64,000 bases of DNA from Lachnospiraceae bacterium (GTDB lineage: Bacteria > Bacillota > Clostridia > Lachnospirales > Lachnospiraceae): contig JAFVCL010000095.1 of NCBI GenBank assembly GCA_017479285.1, positions 8,860 to 72,859 of the forward strand. The letters are read 5' to 3'. The notes under the pieces were generated by a model that was not told the origin of the DNA, made no database searches, and saw nothing but the letters and a program-made list of their open reading frames with translations. Of this stretch, positions 17,352 to 62,995 are shown piece after piece. Within the stretch, counting starts at the first letter, position 1; each line of letters starts with the position of its first letter. A program made the position numbers and the translations under genes.

Positions 17352-17389
17352 ATTGAATAATGTATCGTTTATATGCAGGGAGGAATTAT

Positions 17390-44156: not shown

Positions 44157-44175
44157 AATCGTATCAAGGTGAGTT

Positions 44176-45713: not shown

Positions 45714-45749
45714 AAAGCCGGGCTGACAAATCTGTCGCCCGGCTGTTTT
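45714..45749. terminator. Bidirectional terminator between convergent GH43 and AraC genes
   Basis: AGCCGGGC(T)GACA-aatc-TGTCGCCCGGCT flanked by an A-rich left side and a T-rich right side. Confidence 0.75.
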
Positions 45750-46716
45750 ATCCGGATTTTGCTTTGCCTGTTCTCGATGCGGGAGTTCTGTTCTGCTTTC
45801 GGTACTCGCTGGGAGAACAGCCCTTTTGCTGCTTGAAGAGGCGGTTGAAGGTTGAGATACTCGAAAAACCGGAGGAGATCGCCACATCGGTTATTGAGAC
45901 CTCAGGTCTGGCAAGGAGGGTTTCGGCCTCCTTTATCCTCCTGAAGCACAGGTAATCGCTGAAGTTATAATTTGTATACTGCTTAAAGAGCCTCGAGAAA
46001 TGGAATTTTGAAAAGCCGGTCTTTGCGGCGATATCTCCGAGACTTATCTCCTCCGTAAAATGGTTATCGATATATTCAAGAGTCTCGTTGAAAAGATCCA
46101 CATATTCCTTGCGCTTCGTGGGCGTGGCTCCGGAGAAGACATTTTCCTGCTGGGTGTATTTTTCTCCGAGGGTAATAAAAAGTCTTAGGAGAAGCGCCTG
46201 GATCGCAAGCTCCGAGAACTCGCCGCTTCCGAAGTACTCGTTACGGATCTGGAGAAGGATGGTATAAACATCCGAGTATATATCCGCGTGGGTTTCCTCC
46301 GTGATAAGAAGGGGCTGGGACATAATGGACATTATTCTCGCAAAGCCTTTGAGCTTGGCGATGGAGCTTATGTTCATTATGAAGACAAAGCGTCTTCCCG
46401 AGGAGGGGGCAATGAGCTCGTGGATGGTTCCCGGGGGAATGATAAATATTTCCGAGGGACCGATCACGGTGGTCTCACCGTTACAGATGGCGGTGTAGAT
46501 ATTTTCCGCAGGAACAATGATCTCCATTGCCGAGTGCCAATGGGGAGCAAAGTGGTCGGTCTGCTCATTTAACCATATTCTGTGCAGGCTCTTTGCCTGA
46601 AATTCAACTATTTCATGTCCATCACTGACTGTCCTCTGGCCGGTATAGTCGTCATTTGTCGAATAATACTTCTCAAGAGGAATGCCTGATGAGTTAAGCT
46701 CAGATATATATGACAT
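45748..46716 (-). CDS. AraC-family transcriptional regulator with cupin sensor domain
   Basis: PHWHSAMEII and IIPPGTIH cupin motifs; YIDNHF, GFSKFHFSRLFK, ITDVAISSGFSSISTFNRLFK and SPSEYR HTH motifs. Divergent from GH10. Confidence 0.93.
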   Translation of the reverse strand: MSYISELNSSGIPLEKYYSTNDDYTGQRTVSDGHEIVEFQAKSLHRIWLNEQTDHFAPHWHSAMEIIVPAENIYTAICNGETTVIGPSEIFIIPPGTIHELIAPSSGRRFVFIMNISSIAKLKGFARIMSIMSQPLLITEETHADIYSDVYTILLQIRNEYFGSGEFSELAIQALLLRLFITLGEKYTQQENVFSGATPTKRKEYVDLFNETLEYIDNHFTEEISLGDIAAKTGFSKFHFSRLFKQYTNYNFSDYLCFRRIKEAETLLARPEVSITDVAISSGFSSISTFNRLFKQQKGCSPSEYRKQNRTPASRTGKAKSG

Positions 46717-46945: not shown

Positions 46946-48388
46946 ATGCACAGGTCTTTTACTTTAGCAAAAATAATGATCACAGGGCTCGCTGTTGCGA
47001 CTTGCGCAGGCTTTACGGGATGCTCGCGGAACGCGGCGGAAAGCAATACCGGTGAAGATACAAACAATACTAATATAGAAGAAGTCTTACCGGTCTCCGG
47101 GGATGACACCGGAGCGGATACCGGATCAGGCGAAGCGGAAGGCTCTCAGGATGATGCTGCCGGGGAAAAGATTCAGGATGCTGCCGAAGAGATACCGATC
47201 CTCAGGGACGCGGTCAGGGAAAAGCTTGGGGGATTCGTAGGCTGCGCGGTTACGGGCTCCGAGGTTGACGACGAAAAGGTATGGGATATAGTAACGACGC
47301 ATTTTGAAGCGGTAACCATGGGCAACGAGCTCAAGCCGGACGCTCTCGTGGGATACAGCGTAGGCAAATGTCCGGGAACGGAGGTCGCCGAGCTTAACGG
47401 AGAACAGATAGAGGTTCCCAAGCTTGATTATTCCAGAGCCGAAAAGATACTGGACAAGATCCTTAAATGGAACGAGGAGAATCCGGACAGAAAGATAAAG
47501 GTCAGAGGACATGTGCTTGTCTGGCACTCCCAGACCCCGGAATGGTTCTTCCATGTGGATTACGACAAGAACAAGGATTATGTCAGCGCCGCCGAGATGG
47601 ACAAGAGACTTGAGTGGTACATAAGAACGGTACTTACCCACTTTACCGGAGAGGACAGCAAATACAAAAACCTTTTTTACGGATGGGATGTGGTTAACGA
47701 AGCAATAAGCGACGGGACCGGAACGTACCGGAGTGACAATGAGAACCCGAACGAATCCTTAAGCGAGGACAGACATGGAAGCAATTCGAGCTGGTGGCAT
47801 GTTTATCAAAGCAACGAATACATTATAAACGCTTTTAAATATGCAAACAAATACGCTCCCGGGGATCTGGAACTATACTACAACGACTACAATGAATGTT
47901 CCGCAAATAAACGGAACGGGATAATGGAACTCCTCAAGGCTGTAAAAAATATGGAGGGCGTTCCGGGAGAAGGGACCAGGATAACTGCGATGGGTATGCA
48001 GGGACATTACGGGATGGATAATCCTTCCTACGGGGATGTTCAGGCAAGCATACAGCTTTACGCAAGTGTTACCGGCAAGGTTCAGATCACGGAACTCGAT
48101 ATAAGCGCAAGCGATGACTATGACGGAAGCACGGAATCAAAGGAAGAAGAAAACGAAAAACTCAGAAAAAGATACAACATGATCTACTTCTCAATCTGCG
48201 GAGCTGATTCACAGGATGGAGTTGAAGTTGACGGTATCACATTCTGGGGAACCGCAGACCATTATTCATGGCTTCAGTCAAGGTCTGATGTCGGAGGGGG
48301 AAACACTACGGGGCTTCCGCAGATGCCACTTTTATTCGACGAGAATTACGAGCCTAAGCCGTGCTTTTATGTATTCGCCGGTCAGTAA
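46946..48388 (+). CDS. GH10 endo-1,4-beta-xylanase, lipoprotein
   Basis: Lipobox FTGC and acidic linker; NELKPD, RGHVLVWHSQTP, WDVVNEA, YYNDYN, GMQGH and ITELDI motifs. GGAG RBS before ATG 46946. Confidence 0.92.
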   Translation: MHRSFTLAKIMITGLAVATCAGFTGCSRNAAESNTGEDTNNTNIEEVLPVSGDDTGADTGSGEAEGSQDDAAGEKIQDAAEEIPILRDAVREKLGGFVGCAVTGSEVDDEKVWDIVTTHFEAVTMGNELKPDALVGYSVGKCPGTEVAELNGEQIEVPKLDYSRAEKILDKILKWNEENPDRKIKVRGHVLVWHSQTPEWFFHVDYDKNKDYVSAAEMDKRLEWYIRTVLTHFTGEDSKYKNLFYGWDVVNEAISDGTGTYRSDNENPNESLSEDRHGSNSSWWHVYQSNEYIINAFKYANKYAPGDLELYYNDYNECSANKRNGIMELLKAVKNMEGVPGEGTRITAMGMQGHYGMDNPSYGDVQASIQLYASVTGKVQITELDISASDDYDGSTESKEEENEKLRKRYNMIYFSICGADSQDGVEVDGITFWGTADHYSWLQSRSDVGGGNTTGLPQMPLLFDENYEPKPCFYVFAGQ

Positions 48389-48420: not shown

Positions 48421-51381
48421 ATGAACAAGACTCTGAAGAAAGTATTAATCACATTGGCGGTGATCGCTGCATTCGTGGTAGTGAGCGTTTTGCTCGCCCA
48501 GAGAAAAGTCAAGGATTTTCACGATAAGTATGCCGGAGCGGATCTTACCATGGAGATCGAGGGAGCAGAGAGAAAAGGAACATATGAGAAGTACCTTTTG
48601 AGCCATGAAGGTGCAAATAAGCCTTCCGGGGATATTATTGTCGATATATACGACTACAGCTCGGAGGGAAACGTAACGGTTGAGAGCGATTATGAGGGCG
48701 AGGACAAAGCTTTATTTACCGATACAGGGTCAAGCGTTACATGGACAGTAAACATACCTGAAGAAGGTTTCTATAATCTTTACATCGAATACCTTGCCGC
48801 AGAGTCCAGAGGAGTTGCTGCAGAGAGAAAGGTACTTATCAATGATGAGCTCCCCTTCGAGGATGCGACCAGTGTTGAATTTTCCAGAATCTGGACGGAC
48901 GGAGGTCCGGTTAAAGTTGATAACCAGGGCAATGAGATCAGACCCACACAGGTTGAGGTTTTTGACTGGCAGGATTCATACTTTGTAGATGATATGGGAT
49001 ATGTTGACGAACCTTACCTGTTCTATCTGGAAAAGGGCAGCAACACCATTACCCTCGTGGCCGAGAATGAGCCTATGGCTATTAAGGCTTTTGAAGTAAG
49101 AGGGGTAAGTAAGAGAGATTCCTATACGGAGTATCTTGCAAAGCAGCCCTCGGTTTCACAGAGCGATGCCGCAAAGAATTATTACGAAGTAATAGAAGGA
49201 GAGGATTCCACAAGAAGATCCGAGTCCTCACTTTACGCAAAATACGACAGATCCTCACCCACTACTTCTCCGAACAGCGTAACTACCACGGTTTTAAACT
49301 ATGTTGGCGGCGAAGCGTGGAGAAGCAACGGTATGTGGATCGAGTGGGAATTCGAGGTTCCAGAAGACGGCTTCTATAATATAATGGTCAAGGGACGTCA
49401 GAACTACGCCAGAGGCAGTGTCTCGAACCGCTCCATCCTCATAGACGGCGAGATACCATTCGCGGAGCTGGAAGAGGTCTCATTCCCCTACCTGAATGAT
49501 TGGGAGTGCAAAGAGCTTGCAGATGAGAACGGAGATCCGTACAACTTTTATCTGGCTAAAGGAAAGCACACGATTCGACTTGAGGCTACTCTCGGGGAAC
49601 TCGGAGGAATTCTCTCGGATCTCGAGGATTCGACCTACAGACTTAACCAGATCTACAGAAGGATCCTTGTATACACCGGTGCCACCCCTGACCAATATAG
49701 AGATTACCGTATTGACTCTACTTATCCCGAAATAATAGAAGCTATGGATATTGAGTCAAAGAGATTATACAAGCTGGTAGATGATATGGTCGCCTACAGC
49801 GGACAGAAAGCCGACAATATCGCCACTGCCCAGACCATAGCACAGCAGCTTGAGCGTTTTGTAAAGAAACCTCAGAAGATCACTCTTGAGTTTACAACCT
49901 TCAAGGACAATATAACCGCTCTGGGAACTGCTTCGCTCAATATGAGCCAGACAATGCTGGATGTGGACTATATTACGATCACAGGAACAGATGTTAAGCC
50001 GAAGAACGAGAAGAGCAACTTCTTTATGGCAGCATGGCATGAAGTTAAATCCTTTGTTGCTTCCTTCTTTGTGGATTACAACTCAGTCGGAGATGTATAT
50101 GAGGGAGGAGAGGCCCGGGATGCCATTACCGTATGGGTGCTTACAGGACGCGATCAGGGAACGATACTCAAATCCATGATAGACGACGGATTTACACCGA
50201 ATACCGGAGTTAAGGTCAATGTTGAGATAGTTGCGGCGGATGCTCTGCTTAATGCTGTGCTTGCCGGAAGAGGACCCGATGTTGTTCTCTCGGTTGGCGC
50301 GGATCAGCCTGTAAACTATGCTTTAAGACATGCCGCCGAAGATATAACCCAGTTTGACGACTACAAGGAGGTATTGTCACATTATTCTCCAAGCTCTTAC
50401 GAGCAGTACAGTCTCGACGGACATATCTACGCGATCCCTGAGCAGCAGACCTTCAATGTTATGTTCTACAGAGAGGATGTACTTGAAGAGTTAGAGTTGG
50501 AGGTTCCAAATACCTGGCAGGAGCTTATAGAGATGCTCCCGACGATACAGGGCAACAACCTCTCCATCGGAATACCGAGCGCGGGAGGAAGTTCCTCAAG
50601 CGCAGGCGCGACCACTGCAGTAGCCTCCAATGCACCCGATCTTTCGCTTTACTTTACACTTCTCTTCCAGTACGGCGGAGACATGTACAACGACGAAGGA
50701 ACAAAGACGAGTGTGGATACCGAGGCAGGCATTGAGGCCTTCGATGATTACGTAAGATACTTTAACGACTATGGAATACCTGTTTACTTTGATTTTGTAA
50801 GCCGTTTCCGTTCCGGTGAGATGCCGGTGGGAATAGCATCCTACTCTACCTATAACACGCTTATGGTTTCCGCACCCGAGATAAGAGGTCTTTGGGATTT
50901 CACACTGATACCGGGAACAGAGAAGGTTGACGAAAACGGAAACACCTACATCGACAGAAGCGACTTCATAACAGGAAACGCCACTATGATGCTCGCAAAT
51001 GATGATGAGGTAAAAAAACAGAATTCCTGGGAGTTCATGAAGTGGTGGGCGGATGTAGATACCCAGGTTCGCTTCGGACGCGAGATAGAAGCACTTCTCG
51101 GTGCATCCGCAAGATACAATACAGCTAACAGAGATGCGTTCTCCAAGCTTTCGTGGAGTATGGATGATATAGAAGTACTTGCTGCTCAGTGGGATCAGAC
51201 GAGAGGCATAAGAGAGGTTCCCGGCGGTTACTACACAGGAAGGCATATCGCAAATGCTGTACGTAAGTGTATTAACGACAAGGACGATACCCGTGAGACC
51301 ATCATCGATTACTCAATAAAGATAGATGAGGAGATCACTAAGAAGCGCAGGGAATTTGGCATGCCGGTCTATGAAAAGTAA
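48421..51381 (+). CDS. Giant extracellular solute-binding protein (about 986 aa): N-terminal anchor, two CBM-like beta-sandwiches, helical region, C-terminal sugar SBP domain
   Basis: Duplicated WxxxxPEdGFYN and FYLxKGxxTI modules. SBP motifs GPDV, IYAIP, MFYREDVL, VPNTW, FRSGEMP and WEFMKWW. Confidence 0.88.
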   Translation: MNKTLKKVLITLAVIAAFVVVSVLLAQRKVKDFHDKYAGADLTMEIEGAERKGTYEKYLLSHEGANKPSGDIIVDIYDYSSEGNVTVESDYEGEDKALFTDTGSSVTWTVNIPEEGFYNLYIEYLAAESRGVAAERKVLINDELPFEDATSVEFSRIWTDGGPVKVDNQGNEIRPTQVEVFDWQDSYFVDDMGYVDEPYLFYLEKGSNTITLVAENEPMAIKAFEVRGVSKRDSYTEYLAKQPSVSQSDAAKNYYEVIEGEDSTRRSESSLYAKYDRSSPTTSPNSVTTTVLNYVGGEAWRSNGMWIEWEFEVPEDGFYNIMVKGRQNYARGSVSNRSILIDGEIPFAELEEVSFPYLNDWECKELADENGDPYNFYLAKGKHTIRLEATLGELGGILSDLEDSTYRLNQIYRRILVYTGATPDQYRDYRIDSTYPEIIEAMDIESKRLYKLVDDMVAYSGQKADNIATAQTIAQQLERFVKKPQKITLEFTTFKDNITALGTASLNMSQTMLDVDYITITGTDVKPKNEKSNFFMAAWHEVKSFVASFFVDYNSVGDVYEGGEARDAITVWVLTGRDQGTILKSMIDDGFTPNTGVKVNVEIVAADALLNAVLAGRGPDVVLSVGADQPVNYALRHAAEDITQFDDYKEVLSHYSPSSYEQYSLDGHIYAIPEQQTFNVMFYREDVLEELELEVPNTWQELIEMLPTIQGNNLSIGIPSAGGSSSSAGATTAVASNAPDLSLYFTLLFQYGGDMYNDEGTKTSVDTEAGIEAFDDYVRYFNDYGIPVYFDFVSRFRSGEMPVGIASYSTYNTLMVSAPEIRGLWDFTLIPGTEKVDENGNTYIDRSDFITGNATMMLANDDEVKKQNSWEFMKWWADVDTQVRFGREIEALLGASARYNTANRDAFSKLSWSMDDIEVLAAQWDQTRGIREVPGGYYTGRHIANAVRKCINDKDDTRETIIDYSIKIDEEITKKRREFGMPVYEK

Positions 51382-51406
51382 TACAGCTCTCTGAAAGAGG
51401 AACAAG

Positions 51407-52357
51407 ATGAAAGAAAAACAAGACGGATACTTAAAAAAATACTTTCAGCTGCGAAGGCATAACGCAAAGGTAGCCTGGAAGAAAATGAAGATGAGCAAGA
51501 ATTGCTATATATTTCTTGCTCCATATGCCATACTGTTTACCATGTTTTTTATTTTTCCGGTTGTGGCATCGATATATTTCAGCTTTACTTATTACAACAT
51601 ACTGGAGCCGCCAAAGTTTCTTGGGCTTAACAATTATATAAGCCTGTTGCTTGAGGATGATATATTCCTGATAGGTATTAAGAATACGCTGATAATAGCG
51701 GTGGTCACCGGACCGTTGGGATATATAATGTCGTTTCTCTTCGCCTGGCTGATAAACGAGCTCCCGAGATGGGTTCGAAGCGTAGCAGTCGTAGTCTTCT
51801 ATGCACCCTCGATTGCCGGAAACTGTTATGTTATTTTTTCAGTATTCTTCAGAGGCGACGCTTACGGATATGTCAATGCCGCACTAATGAATCTGGGGAT
51901 CATAGACAACCCAATATACTGGTTTACGGATCCCAAGTGGATGCTTCCGGTATGTATGCTGGTCATCTTGTGGATGAGCCTCGGCCAGGGCTTCCTTTCC
52001 TTCGTCGCAGGTCTTCAGGGCGTTGACCGTTCGATGTATGAAGCGGGATATATGGACGGTATTAAGAACCGCTGGCAGGAGCTGTGGTTCATAACCCTTC
52101 CGAGTATGAAGCCAATGCTTATGTTCGGTGCGGTTATGTCGATCACACAGGCATTCGGTGTATGCGATGTCACAATGCAGCTCTGCGGATATCCCAGTAC
52201 GGATTACGCAGCAAGAACAATTGTAACTCACCTTTTTGACTACGGATTTTCAAGATTTGAGATGGGTTACGCCTGCGCCATAGCTACGATACTGTTTTTG
52301 ATGATGATACTTACAAACAAAGTAATTCAGAGTTTGCTTAGAAGAGTAGGAACCTGA
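51407..52357 (+). CDS. Carbohydrate ABC transporter permease (MalF-like)
   Basis: YIFLAPY, SFTYYN, EAA-like GLQGVDRSMYEAGYMDG and MGYACA; six TM helices. Confidence 0.92.
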   Translation: MKEKQDGYLKKYFQLRRHNAKVAWKKMKMSKNCYIFLAPYAILFTMFFIFPVVASIYFSFTYYNILEPPKFLGLNNYISLLLEDDIFLIGIKNTLIIAVVTGPLGYIMSFLFAWLINELPRWVRSVAVVVFYAPSIAGNCYVIFSVFFRGDAYGYVNAALMNLGIIDNPIYWFTDPKWMLPVCMLVILWMSLGQGFLSFVAGLQGVDRSMYEAGYMDGIKNRWQELWFITLPSMKPMLMFGAVMSITQAFGVCDVTMQLCGYPSTDYAARTIVTHLFDYGFSRFEMGYACAIATILFLMMILTNKVIQSLLRRVGT

Positions 52358-52359
52358 CA

Positions 52360-53262
52360 ATGAGTAAAAAGAGAAAGAAAGAAATTGAAGAAAAGCCTTA
52401 TCACAAGCCGCTTGTGAAGAAGAGAAAGCCAAACAGATCCATAGCGGGAGACGTAGCTCTTTATCTCTTCCTTGCGCTGGTCGCGGTGATAATGGTATTC
52501 CCTATAGTTTATGCGGTGAGTTCGGCGTTAAAACCGCTTGATGAGCTGTTTATGTTCCCCCCGAGGATATTTCCCAGGAACCCAACCATCAACAACTTTG
52601 CCGATCTTTTTGTTACACTCGGAAAGTCATGGGTAACCTTCTCGAGATATCTGTTCAACACCGTGTTCATTACGGCGGTGGGAACCGCGGGACACCTTAT
52701 ACTGGCTTCAATGGCGGCTTTCGTCCTTGCAAAGTATGATTTCCCCGGAGGAAAGGTGTTCTTTAAGCTTGTTACTATAGCCATGATGTTTTCGTACTAT
52801 GTAACAGGTATTCCGAACTACATCCTCATAAACAAACTCGGATGGGTAGATACGTACTGGGCGATAATCATACCGGCATTCGCTTCCCCCATGGGACTTT
52901 TCCTTATGAAACAGTTTATGGAGGGACTTCCCACAGCACTGATCGAGGCTGCAAAGATTGACGGTGCGAATGAGTGGAAGGTATTTTTCCAGATAGTAAT
53001 GCCGAATGTTAAGCCCGCATGGATGACACTTATAATCTTTTCGGTTCAGGGACTCTGGAACAACAGGGCCTCCACATATATTTACTCCGAGGAGAAAAAG
53101 ACGCTGGTATTTGCGCTGGGGCAGATACAGGCAGGCGGAATAGCAAGAACCGGACAGGGCGCGGCGGTTCTTGTTGTGGTAATGATAGTGCCCATTATAA
53201 TCTTTATATTCTCAGAGAGCCAGATACTTGAGACTATGGCCAGCTCGGGTCTTAAAGATTGA
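52360..53262 (+). CDS. Carbohydrate ABC transporter permease (MalG-like)
   Basis: ALKP, FLMKQF and LIEAAKIDGA EAA loop; six TM helices. Confidence 0.92.
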   Translation: MSKKRKKEIEEKPYHKPLVKKRKPNRSIAGDVALYLFLALVAVIMVFPIVYAVSSALKPLDELFMFPPRIFPRNPTINNFADLFVTLGKSWVTFSRYLFNTVFITAVGTAGHLILASMAAFVLAKYDFPGGKVFFKLVTIAMMFSYYVTGIPNYILINKLGWVDTYWAIIIPAFASPMGLFLMKQFMEGLPTALIEAAKIDGANEWKVFFQIVMPNVKPAWMTLIIFSVQGLWNNRASTYIYSEEKKTLVFALGQIQAGGIARTGQGAAVLVVVMIVPIIIFIFSESQILETMASSGLKD

Positions 53263-53287
53263 TATGATAAAGATAGCGAGGAATGCT

Positions 53288-54790
53288 ATGAAGAACAAAT
53301 TTGTACGCTTCGGACTTGCGGCGCTCGGAGCCGCCGCGATGCTCCTTACAACTCCTCTTACCGCTTTTGCGGGAGAGAGTGCATATTCCTACAATTACGA
53401 TTATTGGGGCGATGTTCTCGAAAGCCCGGATTCCTATTCTGTGGTTAAGGTTTTTACTTACAGGGACTTCGGATTGGAGACAAATCTCAAGAATCCCGAG
53501 TCGATGTTTGTGTATGAAGACAGTGTTTATATCTGCGATACGGGAAACAATCGTATCGTTGAGCTTAAAAGAACCGGAACCGACGGATTTGAGTTTGTCA
53601 GGGAAATAAAGAGCATAAAGGGAACGGAGATAACGGATCTCAATGCGCCTGCGGACATAGCGGTCAGCGATGACGGATATATGTACATAGCGGACAGGGG
53701 AAACAACCGAATCATAAAGGTTGATATGGATTGCAATTATATAATGCAATTTGACAGACCTGTAGACCTTGCGCTTTCAAGCGATCTTGTTTTCAACCCC
53801 AACAGACTGGTCATCGATACTGCCGGACGTGTGTATTGTGCTGCATCGGGAATAAATAAAGGTCTCGTCAAGTACGAAGCGGACGGAACGTTTTCGGGTT
53901 TTGTGGGAGCTACGCCTGTTGCTTATAACATAACGGATTATCTGTGGAAGAAATTTGCATCTCAGGAGCAGCGCGCCAGGATGGTGGATTTCGTACCCAC
54001 CGAATATGACAATATCTACATGGACAAAGAAGGCTTTATATATGCCTGTGCCGGTGGCCAGAAGGAAGAAGACCTCGACGCTGAGACTGTACAGGCAGTT
54101 AGAAAGCTTAACATGCTCGGAAGCGACATTCTTGTAAGAAACGGAGATTATCCCGTATATGGAGACCTCTATTGGGGCGGAGGAGGCGGAATCACCGGAC
54201 CTTCGTATTTTAAAGATGTAACCGTACTGGACAACGATGTTTTTGTCTGTCTTGATATGAACAGAGGAAGATGCTTCGGATACGACGATCAGGGAAGGCT
54301 GGTCTTTGTATTCGGAGGAAACGGAAACATGGACGGATACTTCAGACGCCCTGTTTCTATAGAGCACATGGGCAATGACCTTATCGTGCTCGACCAGCTT
54401 GATAATGCCATCACTCTTTTCATCCCGACAGAATTTGGAAGCCTTATTTTCCAGGCAATGGATCAGTTTGATCACGGTCTTTACGATGAGGCGCAGGAAA
54501 GCTGGGAGCTTGTAAAGACCCTTGACGGTAATTACACTCTTGCGTATATCGGAATCGGGCGTTCACTTCTCCGCAAAGGTCAGTACAAAGAGGCTATGGA
54601 TTATTTCGAGCTCAAATATGATGATGAGAACTACTCAAGAGCCTATGCCCAATACCGTAAGGAGTGGATAAAGAACTATATCGGATGGATAATAGCGATA
54701 CTTCTTGTCATCATTCTTGTTCCCTTGGGAATAGGAAAGATAAGATCCATCAGGCGTGAGATTGATACCGCCGATATATTCAGACTTTAA
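53288..54790 (+). CDS. Secreted NHL-repeat beta-propeller protein with TPR-like helices and C-terminal TM anchor
   Basis: Signal peptide ending AFA; NHL repeats YICDTGNNRIV and LNAPADIAV...YIADRGNNRII; LAYIGIGRSLLRKGQYKEAMDYF (TPR-like); terminal TM helix. Confidence 0.85.
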   Translation: MKNKFVRFGLAALGAAAMLLTTPLTAFAGESAYSYNYDYWGDVLESPDSYSVVKVFTYRDFGLETNLKNPESMFVYEDSVYICDTGNNRIVELKRTGTDGFEFVREIKSIKGTEITDLNAPADIAVSDDGYMYIADRGNNRIIKVDMDCNYIMQFDRPVDLALSSDLVFNPNRLVIDTAGRVYCAASGINKGLVKYEADGTFSGFVGATPVAYNITDYLWKKFASQEQRARMVDFVPTEYDNIYMDKEGFIYACAGGQKEEDLDAETVQAVRKLNMLGSDILVRNGDYPVYGDLYWGGGGGITGPSYFKDVTVLDNDVFVCLDMNRGRCFGYDDQGRLVFVFGGNGNMDGYFRRPVSIEHMGNDLIVLDQLDNAITLFIPTEFGSLIFQAMDQFDHGLYDEAQESWELVKTLDGNYTLAYIGIGRSLLRKGQYKEAMDYFELKYDDENYSRAYAQYRKEWIKNYIGWIIAILLVIILVPLGIGKIRSIRREIDTADIFRL

Positions 54791-54807
54791 AAGGATGGGA
54801 GCAGGGT

Positions 54808-55464
54808 ATGTTTAAAGCCTTAACAAAAAAAGAAACTTATATTAAGTATTTGAGGTCGCTGAAGTTCGGACTTTACTGTATGAGCCATCCCCTTGACGGA
54901 TTCTGGGATCTCACACATGAAAAACGCGGGACTTATGCCGCGGCAAATACGATTTTGATCATCACGATATTGGTGAGGATATTGAAGCTTCGATATACCA
55001 GCTTTCTTTTCCTTCAGGTGTATTGGGAAGACATAAATATTTTTCTGTACATAGCGAGTATAATTTTTCCCCTTGCTCTTTGGGTTGTGGGTAACTGGGG
55101 ACTTACGACACTCTTCGACGGAAAAGGACGGCTCGGGGATGTGTATATGGCCACCTGCTATGGCATGCTTCCCTATCCGGTCATACAGCTGCCGCTTATG
55201 ATAGCAAGTAATTTTGTCACCATAGAAGAAGGTCAGTTTTACTCTGTGCTAAGCGTTATATCCCTTGTTTACTGCGCATTGCTGATAATCTTCGGTATGG
55301 GACAGATACATGCTTTTTCCTTCGGAAAAAACATTTTGTTCACCATAGCATCATTATTTGCTATGCTTGTGCTGGTATTCATACTGATGATCTTCTTCAG
55401 CATGATATCTCAGGGTGTATCGTACTTTATATCGATTGGCAGAGAATTGATGTTCCGAATGTAA
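54808..55464 (+). CDS. Yip1-family membrane protein
   Basis: HPLDGFWDL, about 5 TM helices, NWGLTTLFDGKG and YGMLP motifs; position in the cassette is consistent. Confidence 0.8.
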   Translation: MFKALTKKETYIKYLRSLKFGLYCMSHPLDGFWDLTHEKRGTYAAANTILIITILVRILKLRYTSFLFLQVYWEDINIFLYIASIIFPLALWVVGNWGLTTLFDGKGRLGDVYMATCYGMLPYPVIQLPLMIASNFVTIEEGQFYSVLSVISLVYCALLIIFGMGQIHAFSFGKNILFTIASLFAMLVLVFILMIFFSMISQGVSYFISIGRELMFRM

Positions 55465-55507
55465 ACGCGGGGAATATACAGAAAGCCTTTCACGGAATGG
55501 AGCAGTT

Positions 55508-58117
55508 ATGAGTAAAGAGAAAAAGAAGAAGAGTGAAGCTCAGGTCGAAAGAATAAAAGCCTTTCAGGACACTCTTAAGAGTTTAATATTTCCGGTTGTA
55601 CTGGTTGCAGTTATCGGAATCGGTGTATATCTTATCATACATTTTGTCAATGTGCCTTTGGAAACCGAACCCGTGCAGCCCTACGGATATGCCGGGGGAG
55701 AGGATCCTATCGTAAAGGAAACCGATGAGCTTATCTTTACGATGGATCCCCTTACCACATATTTTACGGTTAAACAAAAGTCGACCGGAAAGGAATGGGC
55801 GTCATACATTAAAGATGCGGCAAGCGATTCTATAGCTTTTTCAAACGAAAAGGGTCGTATGCAGTCCAATGTAATTCTTTCATACGGCATCACGACTGGA
55901 CTTGAGACTGTATATGACAGCAAATCCTTCAGCATTGACAAAGGGATTTATGAAATAGAGGAGCTTGATGATGGTGTAATACTTCATTACTCATTGGGTA
56001 ATGTGGAGAGAGAATACATTATACCGAAGGTCATAAGGGCTACGGATTTCGATGATTACAGGTCGAAGATGAGCGACAGTGATGCTTCAACGATCAAGGA
56101 TTTCTATAAACTTTACAATATAAACAAGCTTTCCAAAAAAGATAATAAGGAAGAGCTGCTTGCTGCGTATCCTATACTTGCCGAGGAACCCATCTATGTC
56201 CTCAGAGATAACGCAAACGAAAGCCGTAAGCAGCGTTTCGAAGAAGCCTTTGAAGGAGCGGGATACACCTATGATGATTATCTCGCCGACAAGGAGCTTG
56301 ACATGTCCGAAAGCACGAGCGACAATCCGGTATTCAATCTGGATATGATCATAAGGCTTTCCGGAAATGAGATGGTTGTTGAAATCCCGTTTAATTCAAT
56401 AGAATACGATCCCGACACACCCGTTTACACCGTAACACCTCTTCCCTACTTCGGAGCGGGCGGAAAAGAGGATGAAGGCTTCATGCTTGTGCCGGAAGGC
56501 GGCGGAGCTGTGATCAACTACAATAACGGAAAGGTTTCCCAGGCAGATTATTACGCAAATCTTTACGGCTGGGATATGGACCTTAGAAGAGAATATGTGA
56601 TCCATAACACAAGAGCTTACTTTAATGCCTTTGGTCAGTCCTGTGACGATAGCTCATATATCTGTATCATGGAGGACGGTTCCTCGTATGGCGCGGTTAT
56701 GGCAACGGTAGGCGGGAAAGTGAACGAATACAACTTTACTTCCGCTAAGTACAGCTTGTGCCAGAGAGAGCAGTTTGATATAAGTGAGATCGCGGGCTCG
56801 GATGTTTATGCTTACCTCGAGGGGCTTCCTCAAGACGAGAGTATAGTTCAAAGATACCGCTTTATAGCTAAAGGTGATTATGTCGATATGGCTTATGCCT
56901 ACAGAGATTACCTTGAGACGGAATACGGTCAGTACATGAGCCTTAATGATTATGATCAGGCTCCCGTTACCGTGGAGATCGTCGGAGCTATAGATAAAAA
57001 GCAGCAGGTTCTCGGTGTTCCTGTTACAAGACCTCTAAAACTCACCAGCTACCGCGAAGCGGCAGAAATGATAAGAGATCTTGATAACGAAGGACTCGGC
57101 AATCTTTCCGTTAAGTTCACGGGCTGGTGCAATGGAGGAGTAAGCCAGAAGCTGTTAAAGAAGATCAACCTCATCGGAGCGCTTGGATCAAAAAAAGATT
57201 TTGTATATCTTAACGATACCGCGAAGGAGGTCGGAGTAGATCTTTACCTTGACGGTATAACCCAATATGAGCACAGAAGTAACATATTCAACGGTTTTTT
57301 CTCTTACAGAGATGCTGCCAGACTTTTAACCAAGGAGAGAGCTGAACTGTTTGAATTCAGCCATGTTACCTATAAGGCAAGGGAAGGATTTAAGAGTTAT
57401 TATCTCCTTCATACACCTCTTGCTATGAAGATGGCCAACAATCTTGTCGATTATTCTGTGAAATACGGTGCCGGAGTTTCCTTTCAGGATATCGGTATGG
57501 ATATATCATCGGATTTCTACAAGAAAGCTACCTACAGCAGAGAAGCGGTTAAGACTCTTAACACTGATCTTCTAAAGAGCCTTGATGACAGAGGTGCAAA
57601 GCTGATGATCAATATGGGTAATGATTATGCGGTTCCCTATGCAGATGTTGTTACCAATATGGATCTTAAGGGAAGCGGGTACACCATTATCGACGAGGAA
57701 GTACCTTTTTATCAGATAGCTGTTCACGGTTATATCAATTATACGGGTGAACCTGTGAATATCTGCGGAAATGATGAGGAGGAGCTTTTAAAGAGCGCAG
57801 AGTACGGTGCGGGTCTTAACTTCACACTTATGAGCGAGAGCTCCTTTGCTCTCCAGAAGACGCTATATCCCGAGTATTACGGCGCTGAATACGCTTCATG
57901 GAAGAGCCGGATGGTTGATATGTGTACCAGATACAATGAAGAGCTGGGACATACATTCAATCAGGAAATGACGGATCATGAGGTTCTTTCGGATTATGTA
58001 AGATGTACTACTTACGCCGACGGCACCAAGGTTTATGTTAATTACAGTTATGCAGAGGATTTCACAGCTCCCGACGGAACGGTTGTACCCACAAGAGATT
58101 ATATCGTAGTACGATAA
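55508..58117 (+). CDS. Large membrane-anchored extracellular protein, DUF5696-like
   Basis: N-terminal TM; LPYFGA, GFMLVPEGGGAVI, YGWD, LTSY, GWCNGG, NDYAVPYAD, VPFYQIAVHGYINY and TTYADGTKVYVNY. Family assigned from recall of this motif series. Confidence 0.72.
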   Translation: MSKEKKKKSEAQVERIKAFQDTLKSLIFPVVLVAVIGIGVYLIIHFVNVPLETEPVQPYGYAGGEDPIVKETDELIFTMDPLTTYFTVKQKSTGKEWASYIKDAASDSIAFSNEKGRMQSNVILSYGITTGLETVYDSKSFSIDKGIYEIEELDDGVILHYSLGNVEREYIIPKVIRATDFDDYRSKMSDSDASTIKDFYKLYNINKLSKKDNKEELLAAYPILAEEPIYVLRDNANESRKQRFEEAFEGAGYTYDDYLADKELDMSESTSDNPVFNLDMIIRLSGNEMVVEIPFNSIEYDPDTPVYTVTPLPYFGAGGKEDEGFMLVPEGGGAVINYNNGKVSQADYYANLYGWDMDLRREYVIHNTRAYFNAFGQSCDDSSYICIMEDGSSYGAVMATVGGKVNEYNFTSAKYSLCQREQFDISEIAGSDVYAYLEGLPQDESIVQRYRFIAKGDYVDMAYAYRDYLETEYGQYMSLNDYDQAPVTVEIVGAIDKKQQVLGVPVTRPLKLTSYREAAEMIRDLDNEGLGNLSVKFTGWCNGGVSQKLLKKINLIGALGSKKDFVYLNDTAKEVGVDLYLDGITQYEHRSNIFNGFFSYRDAARLLTKERAELFEFSHVTYKAREGFKSYYLLHTPLAMKMANNLVDYSVKYGAGVSFQDIGMDISSDFYKKATYSREAVKTLNTDLLKSLDDRGAKLMINMGNDYAVPYADVVTNMDLKGSGYTIIDEEVPFYQIAVHGYINYTGEPVNICGNDEEELLKSAEYGAGLNFTLMSESSFALQKTLYPEYYGAEYASWKSRMVDMCTRYNEELGHTFNQEMTDHEVLSDYVRCTTYADGTKVYVNYSYAEDFTAPDGTVVPTRDYIVVR

Positions 58118-58139
58118 ATATTCTAAAGAGGCAGATCAA

Positions 58140-59051
58140 ATGAAAACAAAAGCAAAAAAGAAAGTTGCCGGACTTGAAAAGAGAAAAGCGATATCGGGAT
58201 ATATTTTTATATCACCGTTTATCATAGGTTTTCTCGTATTCATGGTTAAACCTTTTTTCCAGTCTCTCTATATGAGTTTCTGTAATGTGGAGCTGGGGGC
58301 CGGACAGTTTAACATGGTATGGAACGGTATCGAACAGTATAAATATGCGTTCAGAGTCGATCCGGAGTATGTCAGACTTCTTACGGAGGAACTCCTCAGG
58401 ATGGTGATATATTCGCTTGCCATCATAGTTTTCAGTTTCTTCATATCGCTTATACTGAATCAGAAGTTCCACGGAAGAGCGCTTGTAAGAGCAATATTCT
58501 TCCTTCCGGTTATTCTTTCATCCGGTGTTATGCTTGGCCTTGAATCGAATAACCAGCTTATCGCAATGTTGCAGCAGCAGGTTGAGGATGTCACTACCAC
58601 GGTAAGTATTACGGACGGACTTGAGACTATACTCAGAACTGCCGGGGTCGGTGTCAGGGCGTTTGAGAAGGTATTCGAGGTCATAGACAATATATATGAT
58701 GTTGCACTTGCCTCAGGTATTCAGATAGTCATTTTCCTCTCCGGACTTCAGACGATTCCGAAGAGTATGTACGAGGCGGCTGACATAGAGGGCTGTACTG
58801 CGTGGGAGAGTCTGTGGAAGATCACATTCCCGTCCATCAGTTCGCTTTTCCTTGTAAACTGGGTATACACTGTTGTTGATTTCTGTATGAGATCCGACAA
58901 TGAGGTAATCGAGAAAATACAGAATATGATGATCGCTCAGCAGAATTATGGTGCGGCTTCGGCGATGACATGGACTTATTTTGTAATAGTAATAGCCTTT
59001 GTAGGTATTACATCACTGTTGATTTCAAAGGGGGTATACTACAATGACTAA
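58140..59051 (+). CDS. Carbohydrate ABC transporter permease (MalF-like)
   Basis: GYIFISPFIIGF, RAIFFLPVI and GLQTIPKSMYEAADIEG motifs. Confidence 0.92.
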   Translation: MKTKAKKKVAGLEKRKAISGYIFISPFIIGFLVFMVKPFFQSLYMSFCNVELGAGQFNMVWNGIEQYKYAFRVDPEYVRLLTEELLRMVIYSLAIIVFSFFISLILNQKFHGRALVRAIFFLPVILSSGVMLGLESNNQLIAMLQQQVEDVTTTVSITDGLETILRTAGVGVRAFEKVFEVIDNIYDVALASGIQIVIFLSGLQTIPKSMYEAADIEGCTAWESLWKITFPSISSLFLVNWVYTVVDFCMRSDNEVIEKIQNMMIAQQNYGAASAMTWTYFVIVIAFVGITSLLISKGVYYND

Positions 59052-60045
59052 AAACAAGGTACAGAAGGAGAGCTTCTGGGAAAGAAACAGGAAGTCTGAA
59101 GGATACCTTCTTAAAAAGAAGGCTTCGTCAGTGTTTGTCAGCATTGCAAGATTTATTCTTCTCTTCGGACTTTGCTTTTTGATACTTCAGCCTCTTCTCA
59201 ACAAGATATCTGTCAGCTTTATGACAGAGGAGGATCTGTACAACCCTATAGTTGTTTCGATACCGTTGCATTTTACGACGGAGAATTACGAGATCGCGGC
59301 AGAGATAATGAATTATGGAAAAGGACTGATAAACTCCTTTGTGATCTCCGTTACGATATCGATCCTGCAGATAGCTGTATGTACCCTTGTAGGCTACGGA
59401 TTTGCAAGATTTAAGTTTCAGCTTAAGAAATTCTGGTTTGCGATGGTAATGCTGGTTATCATTATTCCTCCCCAGGTTATATCGAATGCCCTTTATCTGC
59501 ATTTCAGATTCTTTGATATTTTTGGAATTATAAAGCTGATTAACGGCGGAAACACCATAAACCTGAGAGGCTCAGCCATTCCGTATTATCTTATGAGTGC
59601 CGGTTGTATGGGACTTAAGAATGGTCTGTATATTTACATGATAAGACAGTTCTTTAGAAATATCCCGGTGGATATGGAAGAGGCTGCTTATGTTGACGGC
59701 TGCGGAGTTGTAAGGACATTCTTTAGGATCATGCTTCCCGAGGCTAAGCCTATAATAACATCCTGCTTCCTGTTTGCATTTGTATGGCAGTGGACCGATG
59801 GTTTTTATTCAAAGCTTTTCCTCTCCGGCGTTACTCTGGTAAGCAGGAGCATTGCAAATATCGTTGATGGTCTGGCTGCGTACATGATGAGGATTCTCGG
59901 TACAATGGCGACGGTATCCATAGCGAGGTCCAATTGTATCCTTTCAACAGGTACTCTTATGGTCGTCGGTCCCGTAATACTGCTTTATCTCTTTGCACAA
60001 AGACAGTTTGTTGAGAGCATCAGTTCATCCGGAATCAAAATGTAA
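59044..60045 (+). CDS. Carbohydrate ABC transporter permease (MalG-like)
   Basis: GYGFARF, RQFFRNIPVDMEEAAYVDG, FVWQW and QRQFVESI motifs. Confidence 0.92.
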   Translation: MTKNKVQKESFWERNRKSEGYLLKKKASSVFVSIARFILLFGLCFLILQPLLNKISVSFMTEEDLYNPIVVSIPLHFTTENYEIAAEIMNYGKGLINSFVISVTISILQIAVCTLVGYGFARFKFQLKKFWFAMVMLVIIIPPQVISNALYLHFRFFDIFGIIKLINGGNTINLRGSAIPYYLMSAGCMGLKNGLYIYMIRQFFRNIPVDMEEAAYVDGCGVVRTFFRIMLPEAKPIITSCFLFAFVWQWTDGFYSKLFLSGVTLVSRSIANIVDGLAAYMMRILGTMATVSIARSNCILSTGTLMVVGPVILLYLFAQRQFVESISSSGIKM

Positions 60046-60049
60046 ATCA

Positions 60050-60093
60050 GAACAGATTTTGAACAAATTTTGAACAAATTTTGAACAAAAACT
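60050..60093 (+). repeat. Four tandem 11-bp direct repeats (GAACAAATTTT) immediately upstream of a promoter
   Basis: GAACAGATTTT GAACAAATTTT GAACAAATTTT GAACAAAAACT. Confidence 0.9.
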
Positions 60094-60094
60094 A

Positions 60095-60123
60095 TTGTGC
60101 TTTCAATTTAAGTGTGTTATATT
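60095..60123 (+). promoter_or_regulatory. Internal sigma-A-type promoter for the SBP lipoprotein gene
   Basis: TTGTGC (60095), 17 bp spacer, TATATT (60118) with extended TG at 60115-16. Confidence 0.6.
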
Positions 60124-60205
60124 AATCATGGTATCTTGCTTCATGGGACTCCCGGAAAAGTCCCAGGAAGTAGAATATATATTCTATATGGAGGGTAAAT
60201 ATAGT

Positions 60206-61723
60206 ATGAGAAAGAAAATGACCTCAAAGGTTATGTCCATTGCTCTTACTGCAGCGATGGCATTGAGTCTTGCAGCATGTTCAAGCGGAAATGATACTTC
60301 AAATACTCCCGCACCTGCTGACACCACCGGTTCTTCGGATACCGCAACCGAGACTGCTCCGGCAGATACAACAACCGAGCCTGTAGCAGACGCTACCGAG
60401 CCTGTGGAAGAAGTAGAGCCTTACACCGTTTACACTGATGCCGATGGTAACCCCATTGATCTTGGGGGAATGGAGATCGTAGTTCGTGACTGGTGGACTG
60501 ATCCTGAAGGAGACAGTTACTTCAGAAACAATCCTCAGAACGAATATGAGGAGGCTCGTGCAGAGTATGTTGACTGGGTTGAGGAGAAGTACAACTTCAA
60601 GCTTGTTCAGAAAGCAATTTCTGACTGGGGCAGCACTCCTGCAGATTTCGTTGATGATGTAACCTCAGGAGGAGACGGAACAAACTATGTTTGGATCGTT
60701 CGTGACTCACAGGAGATCGCTCAGGCTATGGCAACAGGTCTTATGTATGACCTTTCAAAGCTTGACTGCCTTGATTTCTCCGAGGAGTTCTTCACTGCAA
60801 ACAAGGTTCATGAGCAGTATACCTACAAGGGAGGTATTTATGCTATGTACGGCGGTCTTTCCGAGCCCCGTGGAGGATTTTATATCAACAAGCAGATCCT
60901 TGCTGATGCCAATGTAGATATCAATGACATCTATGATGCTCAGAAGAATGGAACCTGGACATGGGATATGTTCCTTGACATTCTTTCACAGGTACAGAAG
61001 GACACCGACAACGACGGTACAAATGATATCTGGGGCGTTACCGGTAACACCGGTGGATGGGGCCAGATGTTCGCTGTATCAAACGGCGGTGAGTGGGTAG
61101 GAAACAGCGCAGATGGCTACACCTACAGACTTGAGGATCCTGAGACTATCGAAGGTATGGACTTTGCTTTAAAGCTCCTTAACGAGTATTATATGCCCAG
61201 ACCTGAGGGAGCAAACTGGGATTACTACAAGGAGGAGTTCCTCAATGGTACAGTTGCTTTCTGTGAGGATGGCGGTATGTACGCAGGACGTTCTGACGGA
61301 GAGCTTGCTTCCGCTCAGTTCCCTGTTGGGTATGTTATGATACCTGCCGGACCTTCCGGAAGCCTTGTAAATATTGCATCCAACAACCCTGTTGTTCTTC
61401 CTTCTTATTATGATGATGAAACAGCATGGAAGGTTGCTTTTGCATGGTATGTATGGAACCAGGCTCCTGCAGGATATGAGGATTACAATCCTTTCGTAGG
61501 ACAGGCTCGTACCGGTATCTTTGATGAGAGAGCATGTGACGAGACTATTCCTATGATGTCTGAGCCTGAGCATGTTGTTATCACCTACTCCGGAATGATC
61601 CCCGGAATCTCGGGTGCTGCGGACATGGGATGGTTCCCTTATCCCGGCGGAGATACTTCTGCTGCAATCGAGATGTGTGCTGAGTCCTGGAAGACCTTCA
61701 TCGACACAGCTAACGGCAAGTAA
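60206..61723 (+). CDS. Sugar ABC transporter substrate-binding lipoprotein
   Basis: Lipobox LAAC, Thr/Pro/Ala/Glu linker, DLGGMEI and GTWTWDMF motifs. GGAGGG RBS. Confidence 0.88.
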   Translation: MRKKMTSKVMSIALTAAMALSLAACSSGNDTSNTPAPADTTGSSDTATETAPADTTTEPVADATEPVEEVEPYTVYTDADGNPIDLGGMEIVVRDWWTDPEGDSYFRNNPQNEYEEARAEYVDWVEEKYNFKLVQKAISDWGSTPADFVDDVTSGGDGTNYVWIVRDSQEIAQAMATGLMYDLSKLDCLDFSEEFFTANKVHEQYTYKGGIYAMYGGLSEPRGGFYINKQILADANVDINDIYDAQKNGTWTWDMFLDILSQVQKDTDNDGTNDIWGVTGNTGGWGQMFAVSNGGEWVGNSADGYTYRLEDPETIEGMDFALKLLNEYYMPRPEGANWDYYKEEFLNGTVAFCEDGGMYAGRSDGELASAQFPVGYVMIPAGPSGSLVNIASNNPVVLPSYYDDETAWKVAFAWYVWNQAPAGYEDYNPFVGQARTGIFDERACDETIPMMSEPEHVVITYSGMIPGISGAADMGWFPYPGGDTSAAIEMCAESWKTFIDTANGK

Positions 61724-61758: not shown

Positions 61759-61796
61759 AAAAAGAGGCTGTATTTTCCGGTGCAGTCTCTTTTTTT
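61759..61796 (+). terminator. Rho-independent terminator (possibly bidirectional)
   Basis: AAAAAGAGGCTGTA-ttttccgg-TGCAGTCTCTTTTTTT. Confidence 0.85.
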
Positions 61797-61867
61797 GCGC
61801 AAAATTTGGGCAGATTTTAGCTAAATAGATATCTAATTGATAGTAAACATGGGGATTTACAATTAAA

Positions 61868-62995
61868 ATGTTGACTATGATGAAGAATATACAAAACAGA
61901 AATCGAATATTTTTTGCAGGTATTTTATTTGCCAATGCTGTTCTTCTTGGCTCGACCGGATGTACCTATAACAGGGATGAGGAACCAATGGTTATCCTTG
62001 ACAGCGGAGACGACTCCTACACGGAGTACAGCTTTGTCCAGGTTGACAGAGGGGATGTCAGAGTGACGGATTCTGTGAAATGCGTATACCGGAAAAATGA
62101 CGAGCAGGAGGTTTTCTTCCCTGTCAGCGGAAAGGTTATTACCAAGGTGTATGTTGAACAGGGGGATGCTGTAAAGAAGGGCGATGTTTTAGCTGAAATA
62201 TCGGTGGGAACATTGCAGGCTGAAATCAAGGCGCTGGAGTACCGCATCGCCAGAAACGAGCTGCTCCTCGGATATTTGGACGAAGAGGAACAACTGGATA
62301 TGCAGGGGTTTTATCTTAATTATCTGTATGGTTCCGGACAGTCGGACAAGGATAAGGAGAACCTTGAAAAAAATCTCGACAATTTATATGACGGGAATGA
62401 CTCAAGGCGCCGTGGTTACGACGATGATCTTGAGTTTGACAGACGAAAGCTGTCTGCACTGAGAAAAGAATACGCCAGTAGCCGGGTTTATGCCCAATTT
62501 GACGGAAAGGTCAGCTCTGTGGAAGAAGGTCTTGAGGGATCGACATCCAATGTTGAAAAGTCAATAATGACGATCGTTGATAACTCGGAGGGCTATTTCG
62601 AAACAGAGGATGCTGATCATATAAAATACTTTAACGAGGGAGAAATCGTCCAGATGAAGGTATCGGTAGGGAACGGAAAGGGAAACTACGAACTTTTGCC
62701 CCTTGATATGGAGGAATGGGGTGAGACCCAGAAATTCTCTATCTTTTCGGGTGATGACACCGAAAACCTTGAGGTCGGGACCCAGGGAAGCGTTACAGTA
62801 GTGCTGGAAAAGCATACCGGTGTTCTACGACTCCCCTCATCCTGTGTTCATTCCGCAGGGGATGCAAGTTATGTATATGTCGAGAATGCAGAGGGACTAA
62901 GGGAGGTTGTCTGGATAGAGACCGGGATTTCCGGGGAAGGTATGACGGAGATACTTAGCGGACTTAATGAAGGGGATAGTGTGATAAAACGCTGA
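61868..62995 (+). CDS. Membrane fusion protein (efflux/ABC adaptor, HlyD/MacA-like), probable lipoprotein
   Basis: Lipobox-like STGC, lipoyl half-motifs SGKVITKVYVEQGDAVKKGDVLA and VYAQFDGKV, coiled coil, and C-terminal TEILSGLNEGDSV. Confidence 0.85.
   Translation: MLTMMKNIQNRNRIFFAGILFANAVLLGSTGCTYNRDEEPMVILDSGDDSYTEYSFVQVDRGDVRVTDSVKCVYRKNDEQEVFFPVSGKVITKVYVEQGDAVKKGDVLAEISVGTLQAEIKALEYRIARNELLLGYLDEEEQLDMQGFYLNYLYGSGQSDKDKENLEKNLDNLYDGNDSRRRGYDDDLEFDRRKLSALRKEYASSRVYAQFDGKVSSVEEGLEGSTSNVEKSIMTIVDNSEGYFETEDADHIKYFNEGEIVQMKVSVGNGKGNYELLPLDMEEWGETQKFSIFSGDDTENLEVGTQGSVTVVLEKHTGVLRLPSSCVHSAGDASYVYVENAEGLREVVWIETGISGEGMTEILSGLNEGDSVIKR

Follow-up and report, generated by a model that had tools for sequence, protein, structure and literature searches.

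How the cutting of fibre at the cell surface is coupled to the uptake of the released fragments is poorly worked out in bacteria that lack SusC and SusD. This question is raised by a locus of a Lachnospiraceae bacterium (assembly GCA_017479285.1, contig JAFVCL010000095.1, positions 8,860 to 72,859 of the forward strand), which lies in a stretch of 64,000 nucleotides that is referred to as the window and whose numbering is used throughout. Nine open reading frames (ORFs) at 48421..61723, all on the + strand, encode two solute-binding proteins (SBPs), four permeases and three further envelope proteins directly behind a xylanase gene. In our estimate the chances are evenly balanced that these genes specify two CUT1-type importers which, together with the three envelope proteins, form one complex for the capture and import of oligosaccharides. 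What sets the locus apart is that two importers are constantly paired with three accessory proteins. The copy in the window is an ordinary member of a cassette which is common (found in 33 of 400 genomes sampled from the phylum) and which is reused for many glycans.

Arrangement of the cassette

The gene order described in the initial annotation, its tight spacing (less than 45 bp between the first eight genes), the absence of an ATPase gene from the nine-gene cassette and the position of the glycoside hydrolase family 10 (GH10) gene directly upstream are confirmed by coordinates and Pfam matches alike. The latter comprise SBP_bac_1, four BPD_transp_1, NHL, Yip1 and DUF5696 (E 6e-181). The gaps between genes 1 to 8 are 25, 2, 25, 17, 43, 22 and −8 bp; 32 bp separate the end of the GH10 gene from the start of the giant SBP gene, and 160 bp lie ahead of the final gene, which encodes the small SBP. 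The nine genes are one operon behind the xylanase gene, and their arrangement is far from what chance would give. For two labels of the initial annotation, "TPR" and "CBM-bearing", the matches (to TPR and CBM35) are weak and below the Pfam cut-offs. The features of the locus are:

45748..46716, − strand: AraC-family regulator (Pfam HTH_18 and AraC_binding), divergent from the operon, also in close relatives
46946..48388, + strand: GH10 xylanase-family lipoprotein (Pfam GH10, E 3e-68), the two catalytic-motif glutamates intact
48421..51381, + strand: giant SBP, 986 aa (Pfam; model pLDDT 86)
51407..52357, + strand: permease F1 (MalF/UgpA type), EAA loop intact, the most conserved part of the cassette
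52360..53262, + strand: permease G1 (MalG/UgpE type), EAA loop intact
53288..54790, + strand: NHL beta-propeller protein with TPR-like helices (Pfam NHL, hydropathy)
54808..55464, + strand: Yip1-domain membrane protein (Pfam Yip1, E 3e-11)
55508..58117, + strand: DUF5696 protein, 869 aa, with an N-terminal membrane helix and a GH129 fold (Pfam, structure comparison)
58140..59051, + strand: permease F2, EAA loop intact, immediately 3′ of DUF5696 in 59 of 60 loci
59044..60045, + strand: permease G2, EAA loop intact
60057..60123, + strand: predicted internal promoter of the small SBP gene (from the sequence; absent from the consensus scan list)
60206..61723, + strand: small solute-binding lipoprotein (SBP2), with a lipobox-like LAAC and a match to 6RJY
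61759..61798, + strand: terminator-like hairpin with A and T runs at the cassette end (fold z −2.2; 3 of 200 shuffles equally stable; absent from the consensus scan list)

The AraC gene is likely to be the local regulator of the operon, judging from its divergent position. Consensus scans for promoters (35 against 32.4) and terminators (14 against 13.3) were at chance level, and no Rfam family was found between 44000 and 64000.

Conservation of gene order

Neighbourhoods were compared in two sets of loci. The set anchored on DUF5696 comprised 60 loci (38 of 50 matches from the phylum draw and 22 of 35 from the draw of relatives, contig-internal ones being preferred), with seven weak DUF5696 matches lying outside it; the set anchored on permease F1 comprised the best 80 of 594 named loci, 68 of which had enough flank. 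As kin among the loci are not independent, counts are given without P values. The core NHL(+Yip1)-DUF5696-F2-G2 was contiguous in 59 of the 60 DUF5696 loci, with NHL and Yip1 being fused in 31 and separate in 28 of them. In the exception, L040, the propeller-Yip1 gene still lies 5′ of DUF5696. The giant SBP module was found immediately upstream in 44 of these loci, slightly downstream in five and outside the stretch in 11. Among the 68 F1-anchored loci with flank, 64 had the full strict order, and in the remaining four the succession NHL-Yip1-DUF5696 was kept downstream, with one gene split or others inserted; no MalK gene occurred in any of the 68. Neighbourhood analysis thus bears out both that the order is conserved and that the three accessory genes accompany both permease pairs, as the initial annotation had expected.

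The same coupling is apparent at the level of genomes. DUF5696 was above the cut-off in 23 of 25 genomes of the genus (that of the window being counted), in 2 of 16 genomes of other families and in the 33 of 400 phylum genomes given above. The N-terminal region of the giant SBP gave a strong match in 34 genomes of the same 400-genome draw, of which 32 were DUF5696-positive; four genomes with weak matches on short ORFs were excluded from this count. The contigs of the two SBP-only genomes are 3.8 and 4.3 kb long and end in F1. At E 1e-30, DUF5696 matched 4,288 clusters at 50% identity. The names of the best 80 F1-anchored records include Butyrivibrio, Acetatifactor, Oscillospiraceae, Herbinix, Treponema and Acholeplasmataceae. 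Since the full cassette is present in records labelled Treponema/Spirochaetaceae and Acholeplasmataceae (L148, L149, L151, L155 and L171), it is not restricted to walled Gram-positive cells.

Several copies and variants were encountered along the way. Some genomes carry at least five cassettes (L012-L015, L043, L044, L078-L083; the search-based copy numbers are lower bounds), among them cores with no giant SBP module beside them and, conversely, giant SBP modules that lack a core. The genome of the window itself has a second cassette (L003:5283-19454, contig C10), located 3′ of an arabinofuranosidase-family gene and 5′ of GH43 and arabinose-catabolism-like genes, in which NHL and Yip1 are fused (685 aa), DUF5696 is shorter (735 aa) and the parts are 15-41% identical to those of the window copy. 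The divergent variant at L040:9635-19763 reads propeller-Yip1, DUF5696, a gene of unknown type, HlyD-like, MacB-like, two permeases and GH16, and no giant SBP was found in its genome with the query used. A 428-aa ORF on the opposite strand interrupts permease G1 of a mannanase-linked cassette (L026:7587-8870). One branch of the genus (L056-L064, e.g., L064:3370-4341) has a pair of paralogous genes of ~320 aa, neither of them matched by Pfam, that separate the small SBP gene from GH10.

Two importers of unequal divergence

The cassette contains what defines CUT1 importers, namely MalE-type binding proteins and MalF- and MalG-type permeases with the EAA loop, and a MalK/MsmX-type ATPase is present in the genome. 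The EAA glycine is invariant in 61, 61, 46 and 45 sequences of the four permease sets. When compared with four ordinary permeases each from this genome, F1 and G1 formed separate clades with a support of 0.999 each. Among 16 diverse complete cassettes the mean identity was 51% for F1, 48% for G1 and 41% for the giant SBP domain, 37% for F2, 38% for G2 and 28-33% for the accessory proteins, and it was lowest, at 20%, for the small SBP.

The giant SBP consists of an N-terminal membrane helix, two beta-sandwich regions, a helical insert and a MalE-type domain (~residues 564-980), the latter aligning with 5YSB at Z 35.8 (rmsd 2.9, 372 aligned). The fold search did not resolve its N-terminal half, as the SBP domain dominated the matches. 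All 136 of 136 pairs of giant-SBP domains scored above 191 bits, and this domain is a single conserved family. The small SBP has no Pfam match and resembles a solved arabino-oligosaccharide-binding protein (6RJY, E 1.5e-10); 71% of its 136 pairs scored below 50 bits. The unequal divergence of the two importers, together with a predicted promoter of its own, suggests that the small SBP is likely to be the exchangeable, substrate-selecting part. The predicted promoter is composed of three perfect 11-bp direct repeats (60057-60089), a weak −35 element (60095-60100) and a TG-extended −10 element (60115-60123), and −35/−10-like elements were read by eye at the equivalent site in relatives. As a guess, the divergent AraC protein might bind the 11-bp repeats as an activator. 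The repeats lie within 60057-60200 together with a 5′ hairpin (z −2.45), and both recur in L052, L053 and L058. Parts of the cassette are covered by contigs from four gut metatranscriptomes, of which the contigs on the small SBP were deeper in three of the four runs and started at 60208 in all four. These depths were not used as evidence, since contig depth cannot rank genes, DNA may have been present and a silent-stretch control was lacking.

The cassette is probably powered by a MalK/MsmX-type ATPase from elsewhere in the genome. This had been proposed in the initial annotation, and three candidates of MalK size were indeed found. Contig C82 has two of them, each with an OB_MalK domain, and C30 has the third; all are beside other transporter genes. 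In one of the 60 loci (L035) a MalK-type gene lies immediately 5′ of the giant SBP. Two further ABC ATPase genes are located ~6.2 kb past the cassette end, beyond the window, in the adaptor-adaptor-FtsX-like module considered below.

A glycosidase fold with unconserved catalytic positions

The DUF5696 protein (model pLDDT 89) has the GH129 fold, consisting of a beta-sandwich, a TIM barrel and an Ig-like domain. Its closest structural matches are NagBb (5WZN; Z 30.5, rmsd 3.9, 558 aligned) and ZgDagB (5OPQ; Z 29.7), with the next rows at 18; Foldseek returned GH129 (E 2e-33), followed by GH101 and GH36, and a profile matched GH129 enzymes at E 9e-14. The three-domain fold is common to NagBb, ZgDagB, GH101 and DUF5696 (Z 28-30 over ~560-585 residues). 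Unlike the GH129 enzymes, to which it is 14-18% identical, DUF5696 has a membrane anchor, a helical insert and no conserved acid pair. The GH129 family PF11308 did not match the protein at E 0.01, nor any other in this genome, and scored E <1e-117 in 4 of 400 other genomes. No GH129 gene was found in 41 relatives, in a search whose controls gave no signal either.

According to the accessible text of the ZgDagB study, this enzyme requires Asp202, Asp486, Glu517 and Glu531, of which only the position of Asp486 is common with NagBb (PMC5698469). Glu517, the conserved Glu that follows the barrel strand, aligns, in a low-scoring stretch, with Asn702 of the window protein, and the invariant Glu of four uncharacterised PF11308 proteins also aligns with Asn702 (hhalign probability 93%). 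The catalytic Asp (Asp435 in NagBb, Asp486 in ZgDagB) would map to position 660 or 661, where the alignments are gapped and where the window protein has Gln660 and Asp661. Among 150 homologs (the window protein and 149 representatives below 50% identity), Glu occurs at position 702 in 32, with at least 14 different residues being found there; Asp occurs at 660 in four and at 661 in 57, and both catalytic-position acids occur together in 13. By comparison, the catalytic Glu was present in all 17 of 17 cassette-linked GH10s. These counts suggest that glycosidase activity is probably not a conserved property of the family, and the window protein is probably a non-catalytic pseudo-enzyme as judged by alignment and model. 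DUF5696 is not to be classed as a GH129 enzyme. Known GH129 enzymes are exo-alpha-glycosidases, not xylanases. The suggestion of the initial annotation that DUF5696 might cut xylan is therefore not upheld, as its fold relatives are an exo-acting alpha-galactosaminidase and an anhydrogalactosidase and its catalytic positions are unconserved; it is more likely that the cutting is done by GH10.

The propeller, Yip1 and the second permease pair

Hydropathy indicates a signal-like helix at the N-terminus and a membrane helix at the C-terminus of the NHL/TPR protein. An Atlas search returned only NHL clusters. A complex of Yip1 with F2 and G2 was predicted with a score of 0.59, compared with 0.01 for the best control (contact agreement at least 89%, partner pLDDT at least 71). 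In the calibration, the mark was reached by 116 of 157 solved complexes and by 2 of 215 mismatches. The prediction is rated as weak, because at scores of 0.60 or below only 18 solved complexes pass, along with both of the mismatches. It faintly suggests that Yip1 docks on the F2-G2 pair, which is consistent with the gene linkage and with the precedent of YknW (see below) and proves nothing. Yip1 had been imagined as a scaffold for both permease pairs, of which the modelling returned the interface with the second pair, at this weak score; it covers that interface only.

Substrates and flanking enzymes

Xylan is the likely substrate of the window copy, as judged by its neighbourhood. Upstream of GH10 (41207-45711) lie genes for GH8, a GDSL esterase and GH43. 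None has an obvious signal peptide, and these enzymes are likely to be the cytoplasmic half of a xylan pathway. In a survey of cassette flanks (78 and 82 proteins scanned, from 153 cluster representatives and genes of the own genome), the neighbours included GH10/GH43/GH67, GH26, arabinofuranosidase, Glycoamylase-domain proteins with GH35, pectate lyases/GH28/GH106, GH31/GH42/fucosidase, GH38 and GH16. The flanking enzymes thus vary with the glycan, which the initial annotation had proposed as a question for neighbourhood analysis. This variety argues for the cassette being a general chassis that is not specific for xylan.

Relation to known systems

A Gram-positive polysaccharide utilization locus (PUL) is defined by a glycoside-degrading enzyme, a transporter and a regulator in one locus (PMC13543919). 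With GH10, GH8, GH43, ABC transporter genes and AraC in one locus, the cassette belongs to the Gram-positive PULs with CUT1 import. It shares MalE-fold SBPs, MalF/MalG-type permeases with EAA loops and an ATPase encoded elsewhere with the MalEFG-type importers that use a shared MsmK/MsmX. In contrast to these, it has two linked importers, a membrane-anchored SBP of 986 aa and three extra conserved proteins. The cassette does not belong to the Sus systems, as neither SusC/SusD nor a TonB-dependent transporter was found among 16 proteins scanned from the region. The Sus or utilisome machinery of Bacteroidota resembles it as a working idea only (a surface cutter, non-catalytic binders and a transporter), and differs in that import is here by an ABC system across the cytoplasmic membrane, with the complex being proposed from genes and one weak prediction.

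The closest known layout is an operon at the head of the xylan degradation locus of Caldicellulosiruptor (Anaerocellum) bescii, xloEFG-Athe_0177-Athe_0178-axoFGE, which is induced by xylan and in which Athe_0177 carries NHL repeats and Athe_0178 is a putative GH129 (PMC8579813, available text). Its order, SBP-permease-permease-NHL-GH129-permease-permease-SBP, without an ATPase and with adjacent xylanases, corresponds to that of the window by gene order and annotation, not by sequence. It has one gene between permeases and GH129, where the window has two (NHL and Yip1 being separate), and a LacI-type regulator, XynR, instead of AraC; XynR binds the xylan degradation locus according to the accessible part of its report (PMC12285236). 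The available text also describes that C. bescii grows less well on xylan once the shared msmK is deleted (PMC8579813). Athe_0181 is cited, in the part of that source at hand, as a non-catalytic helper of hydrolysis (PMC10492685). Hence, the layout is already in print for C. bescii, and its accessory proteins are left unstudied in the available text, in which the two importers are treated as separate (PMC8579813). A sequence search with the published C. bescii operator gave nothing, and there was no Caldicellulosiruptor record among the best 80 of 594 named F1-anchored loci. As this thermophile is genetically tractable and its operon has the same order, the question raised here is directly testable.

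The literature search, outside of which subscription papers lay, revealed no study of the accessory proteins and no paper on DUF5696, in agreement with the statement of the initial annotation that no function is established for the three. The terms GH129, Yip1, NHL and "accessory" do not occur in a 2026 review of glycoside transporters, and a review of transport in thermophiles does not name the C. bescii locus. A Blautia glucan locus was considered as a comparable system and set aside, being an ordinary importer. For Yip1 there is a precedent in Bacillus, where the Yip1-like YknW is an accessory subunit of the ABC transporter YknWXYZ according to the available text (PMC4338810). Both systems have a Yip1-like membrane protein beside an ABC transporter; as far as that text goes, YknWXYZ differs in being a MacAB-type peptide exporter and in having neither a propeller nor a glycosidase-fold partner.

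A possible capture-and-import complex and its alternatives

In its more specific form, which we consider less likely than not, the proposed complex would be a widespread ABC "utilisome" that can be reprogrammed for different substrates. One membrane supercomplex would hold both permease pairs; a Yip1/propeller adaptor would sit on one of them, a dead glycosidase of GH129 fold would serve as the glycan platform, the giant SBP module would be constant, and the diet would be set by exchange of the small SBP, so that fragments would be captured selfishly without SusC/D. In the general reading, to which the even chances given above apply, GH10 would cut xylan on the cell surface and feed the fragments to the cassette, where the giant SBP, through its CBM-like domains, and the GH129-fold pseudo-enzyme may hold them close to the membrane. 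The small exchangeable SBP, overproduced from its own promoter, would select an oligosaccharide and hand it over to F2-G2, on which the propeller/TPR-Yip1 unit would dock and position the accessory proteins. The giant SBP with F1 and G1 would form the other importer module, which is the more conserved of the two and would work with the core regardless of the glycan. Breakdown would be completed in the cytoplasm by the upstream GH8, GH43 and esterase. If real, such a complex would add a new architecture to the ABC importers and a bacterial role to Yip1 proteins, together with a large family of pseudo-glycosidases that is presently mis-read as GH129 enzymes.

Several observations speak against one joint complex of this kind. 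The giant SBP module lies outside the stretch in 11 of the 60 loci, is solitary in L080 and L087, and was not detected with this query in genome G365. All parts diverge in step with one another (Spearman 0.65-0.92), which is expected from block inheritance alone. F2 and G2 are monophyletic with low support (0.16 and 0.68, with only four outgroup permeases each), the score of the Yip1-F2-G2 prediction lies in a range that is more often wrong than right and concerns the one interface tried among those possible, and the CBM35 likeness of the beta-sandwich regions is below the cut-off (E 0.0015-0.01). DUF5696 retains other conserved acids (D356, E389, D669, D729 and E765), and its nucleophile position is not exactly fixable owing to the alignment gap, with the window protein having Asp661. 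Substrates were inferred from neighbour genes only. The small SBP does not follow the substrate cleanly: those of xylan-linked cassettes fall into three unrelated groups, and one mannanase-linked and one GH43-linked copy from a single genus are 60% identical.

One alternative is that of two independent CUT1 importers and three surface proteins which are co-regulated and inherited and transferred as a block, without a stable joint complex. We regard this as unlikely, though it is the most serious of the alternatives: each importer comes with an SBP and an F/G pair of its own, the EAA loops being intact, the giant SBP module can be relocated or occur separately, the predicted binding of Yip1 to F2-G2 is weak, and two separate transporters were also what the annotators of C. 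bescii described in the available text (PMC8579813). It accounts poorly for the almost one-to-one pairing of the modules in genomes of different families, including cases in which they are unlinked, for the fusion of NHL and Yip1 in 31 of 60 loci, and for an order that is retained while flanking enzymes and the small SBP are swapped. A different doubt concerns DUF5696, which could be, in line with the initial annotation and with the label "putative GH129" in C. bescii, an active surface glycosidase that trims fragments before import by a rewired active site, the rest of the complex being as proposed. The GH129 fold (Z ~30), Asp661 in the window protein and the conservation of Asp669 (140 of 150 homologs) and Asn705 (135 of 150) would allow for it, and the available text describes that ZgDagB itself uses acids other than those of NagBb, one being contributed by a partner subunit (PMC5698469). 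Such an activity appears improbable given that the Glu position is Asn by two independent alignments and as variable as described above, that PF11308 is unmatched in this genome and that the family adjoins enzymes for unrelated glycans.

The accessory proteins might instead serve a neighbouring module, in which a 945-aa FtsX-like permease is encoded along with two adaptors of the membrane-fusion type and two ABC ATPases (61868-64000 of the window and L007:728-8411), comparable to YknW-YknXYZ (PMC4338810, available text), or one permease pair might be a device for sensing or assembly. Of the 17 long-type loci of the genus, 14 have the module next to the cassette, before or after it, as have 10 of the best 80 of 594 F1-anchored loci, and HlyD- and MacB-like genes lie between DUF5696 and the permeases in L040. 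However, the FtsX-like protein was matched in only 5 of 33 DUF5696 genomes and also in 5 of 367 others, most of its copies are unlinked to the cassette, with several beside genes of the outer-membrane-efflux type, and the terminator-like hairpin separates the module from the cassette. We hold a service to the module, or a role of one permease pair in sensing or assembly, to be highly improbable, and a joint capture-and-import complex of the nine gene products remains our preferred reading.

Further observations at the locus

The adaptor/FtsX module also stands beside the cassette in some other Lachnospiraceae. As a general part of the cassette it was considered and rejected, given the match in only 5 of 33 DUF5696 genomes. 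Elsewhere in the window, a GH3 glycosidase is encoded as two adjoining genes, with the gene for the C-terminal domain coming first (17360-20290). At 39798-41078, an SPFH/band-7 ORF ends at 40538 and the ORF at 40581-41078 resembles its continuation, so that this gene is possibly split.

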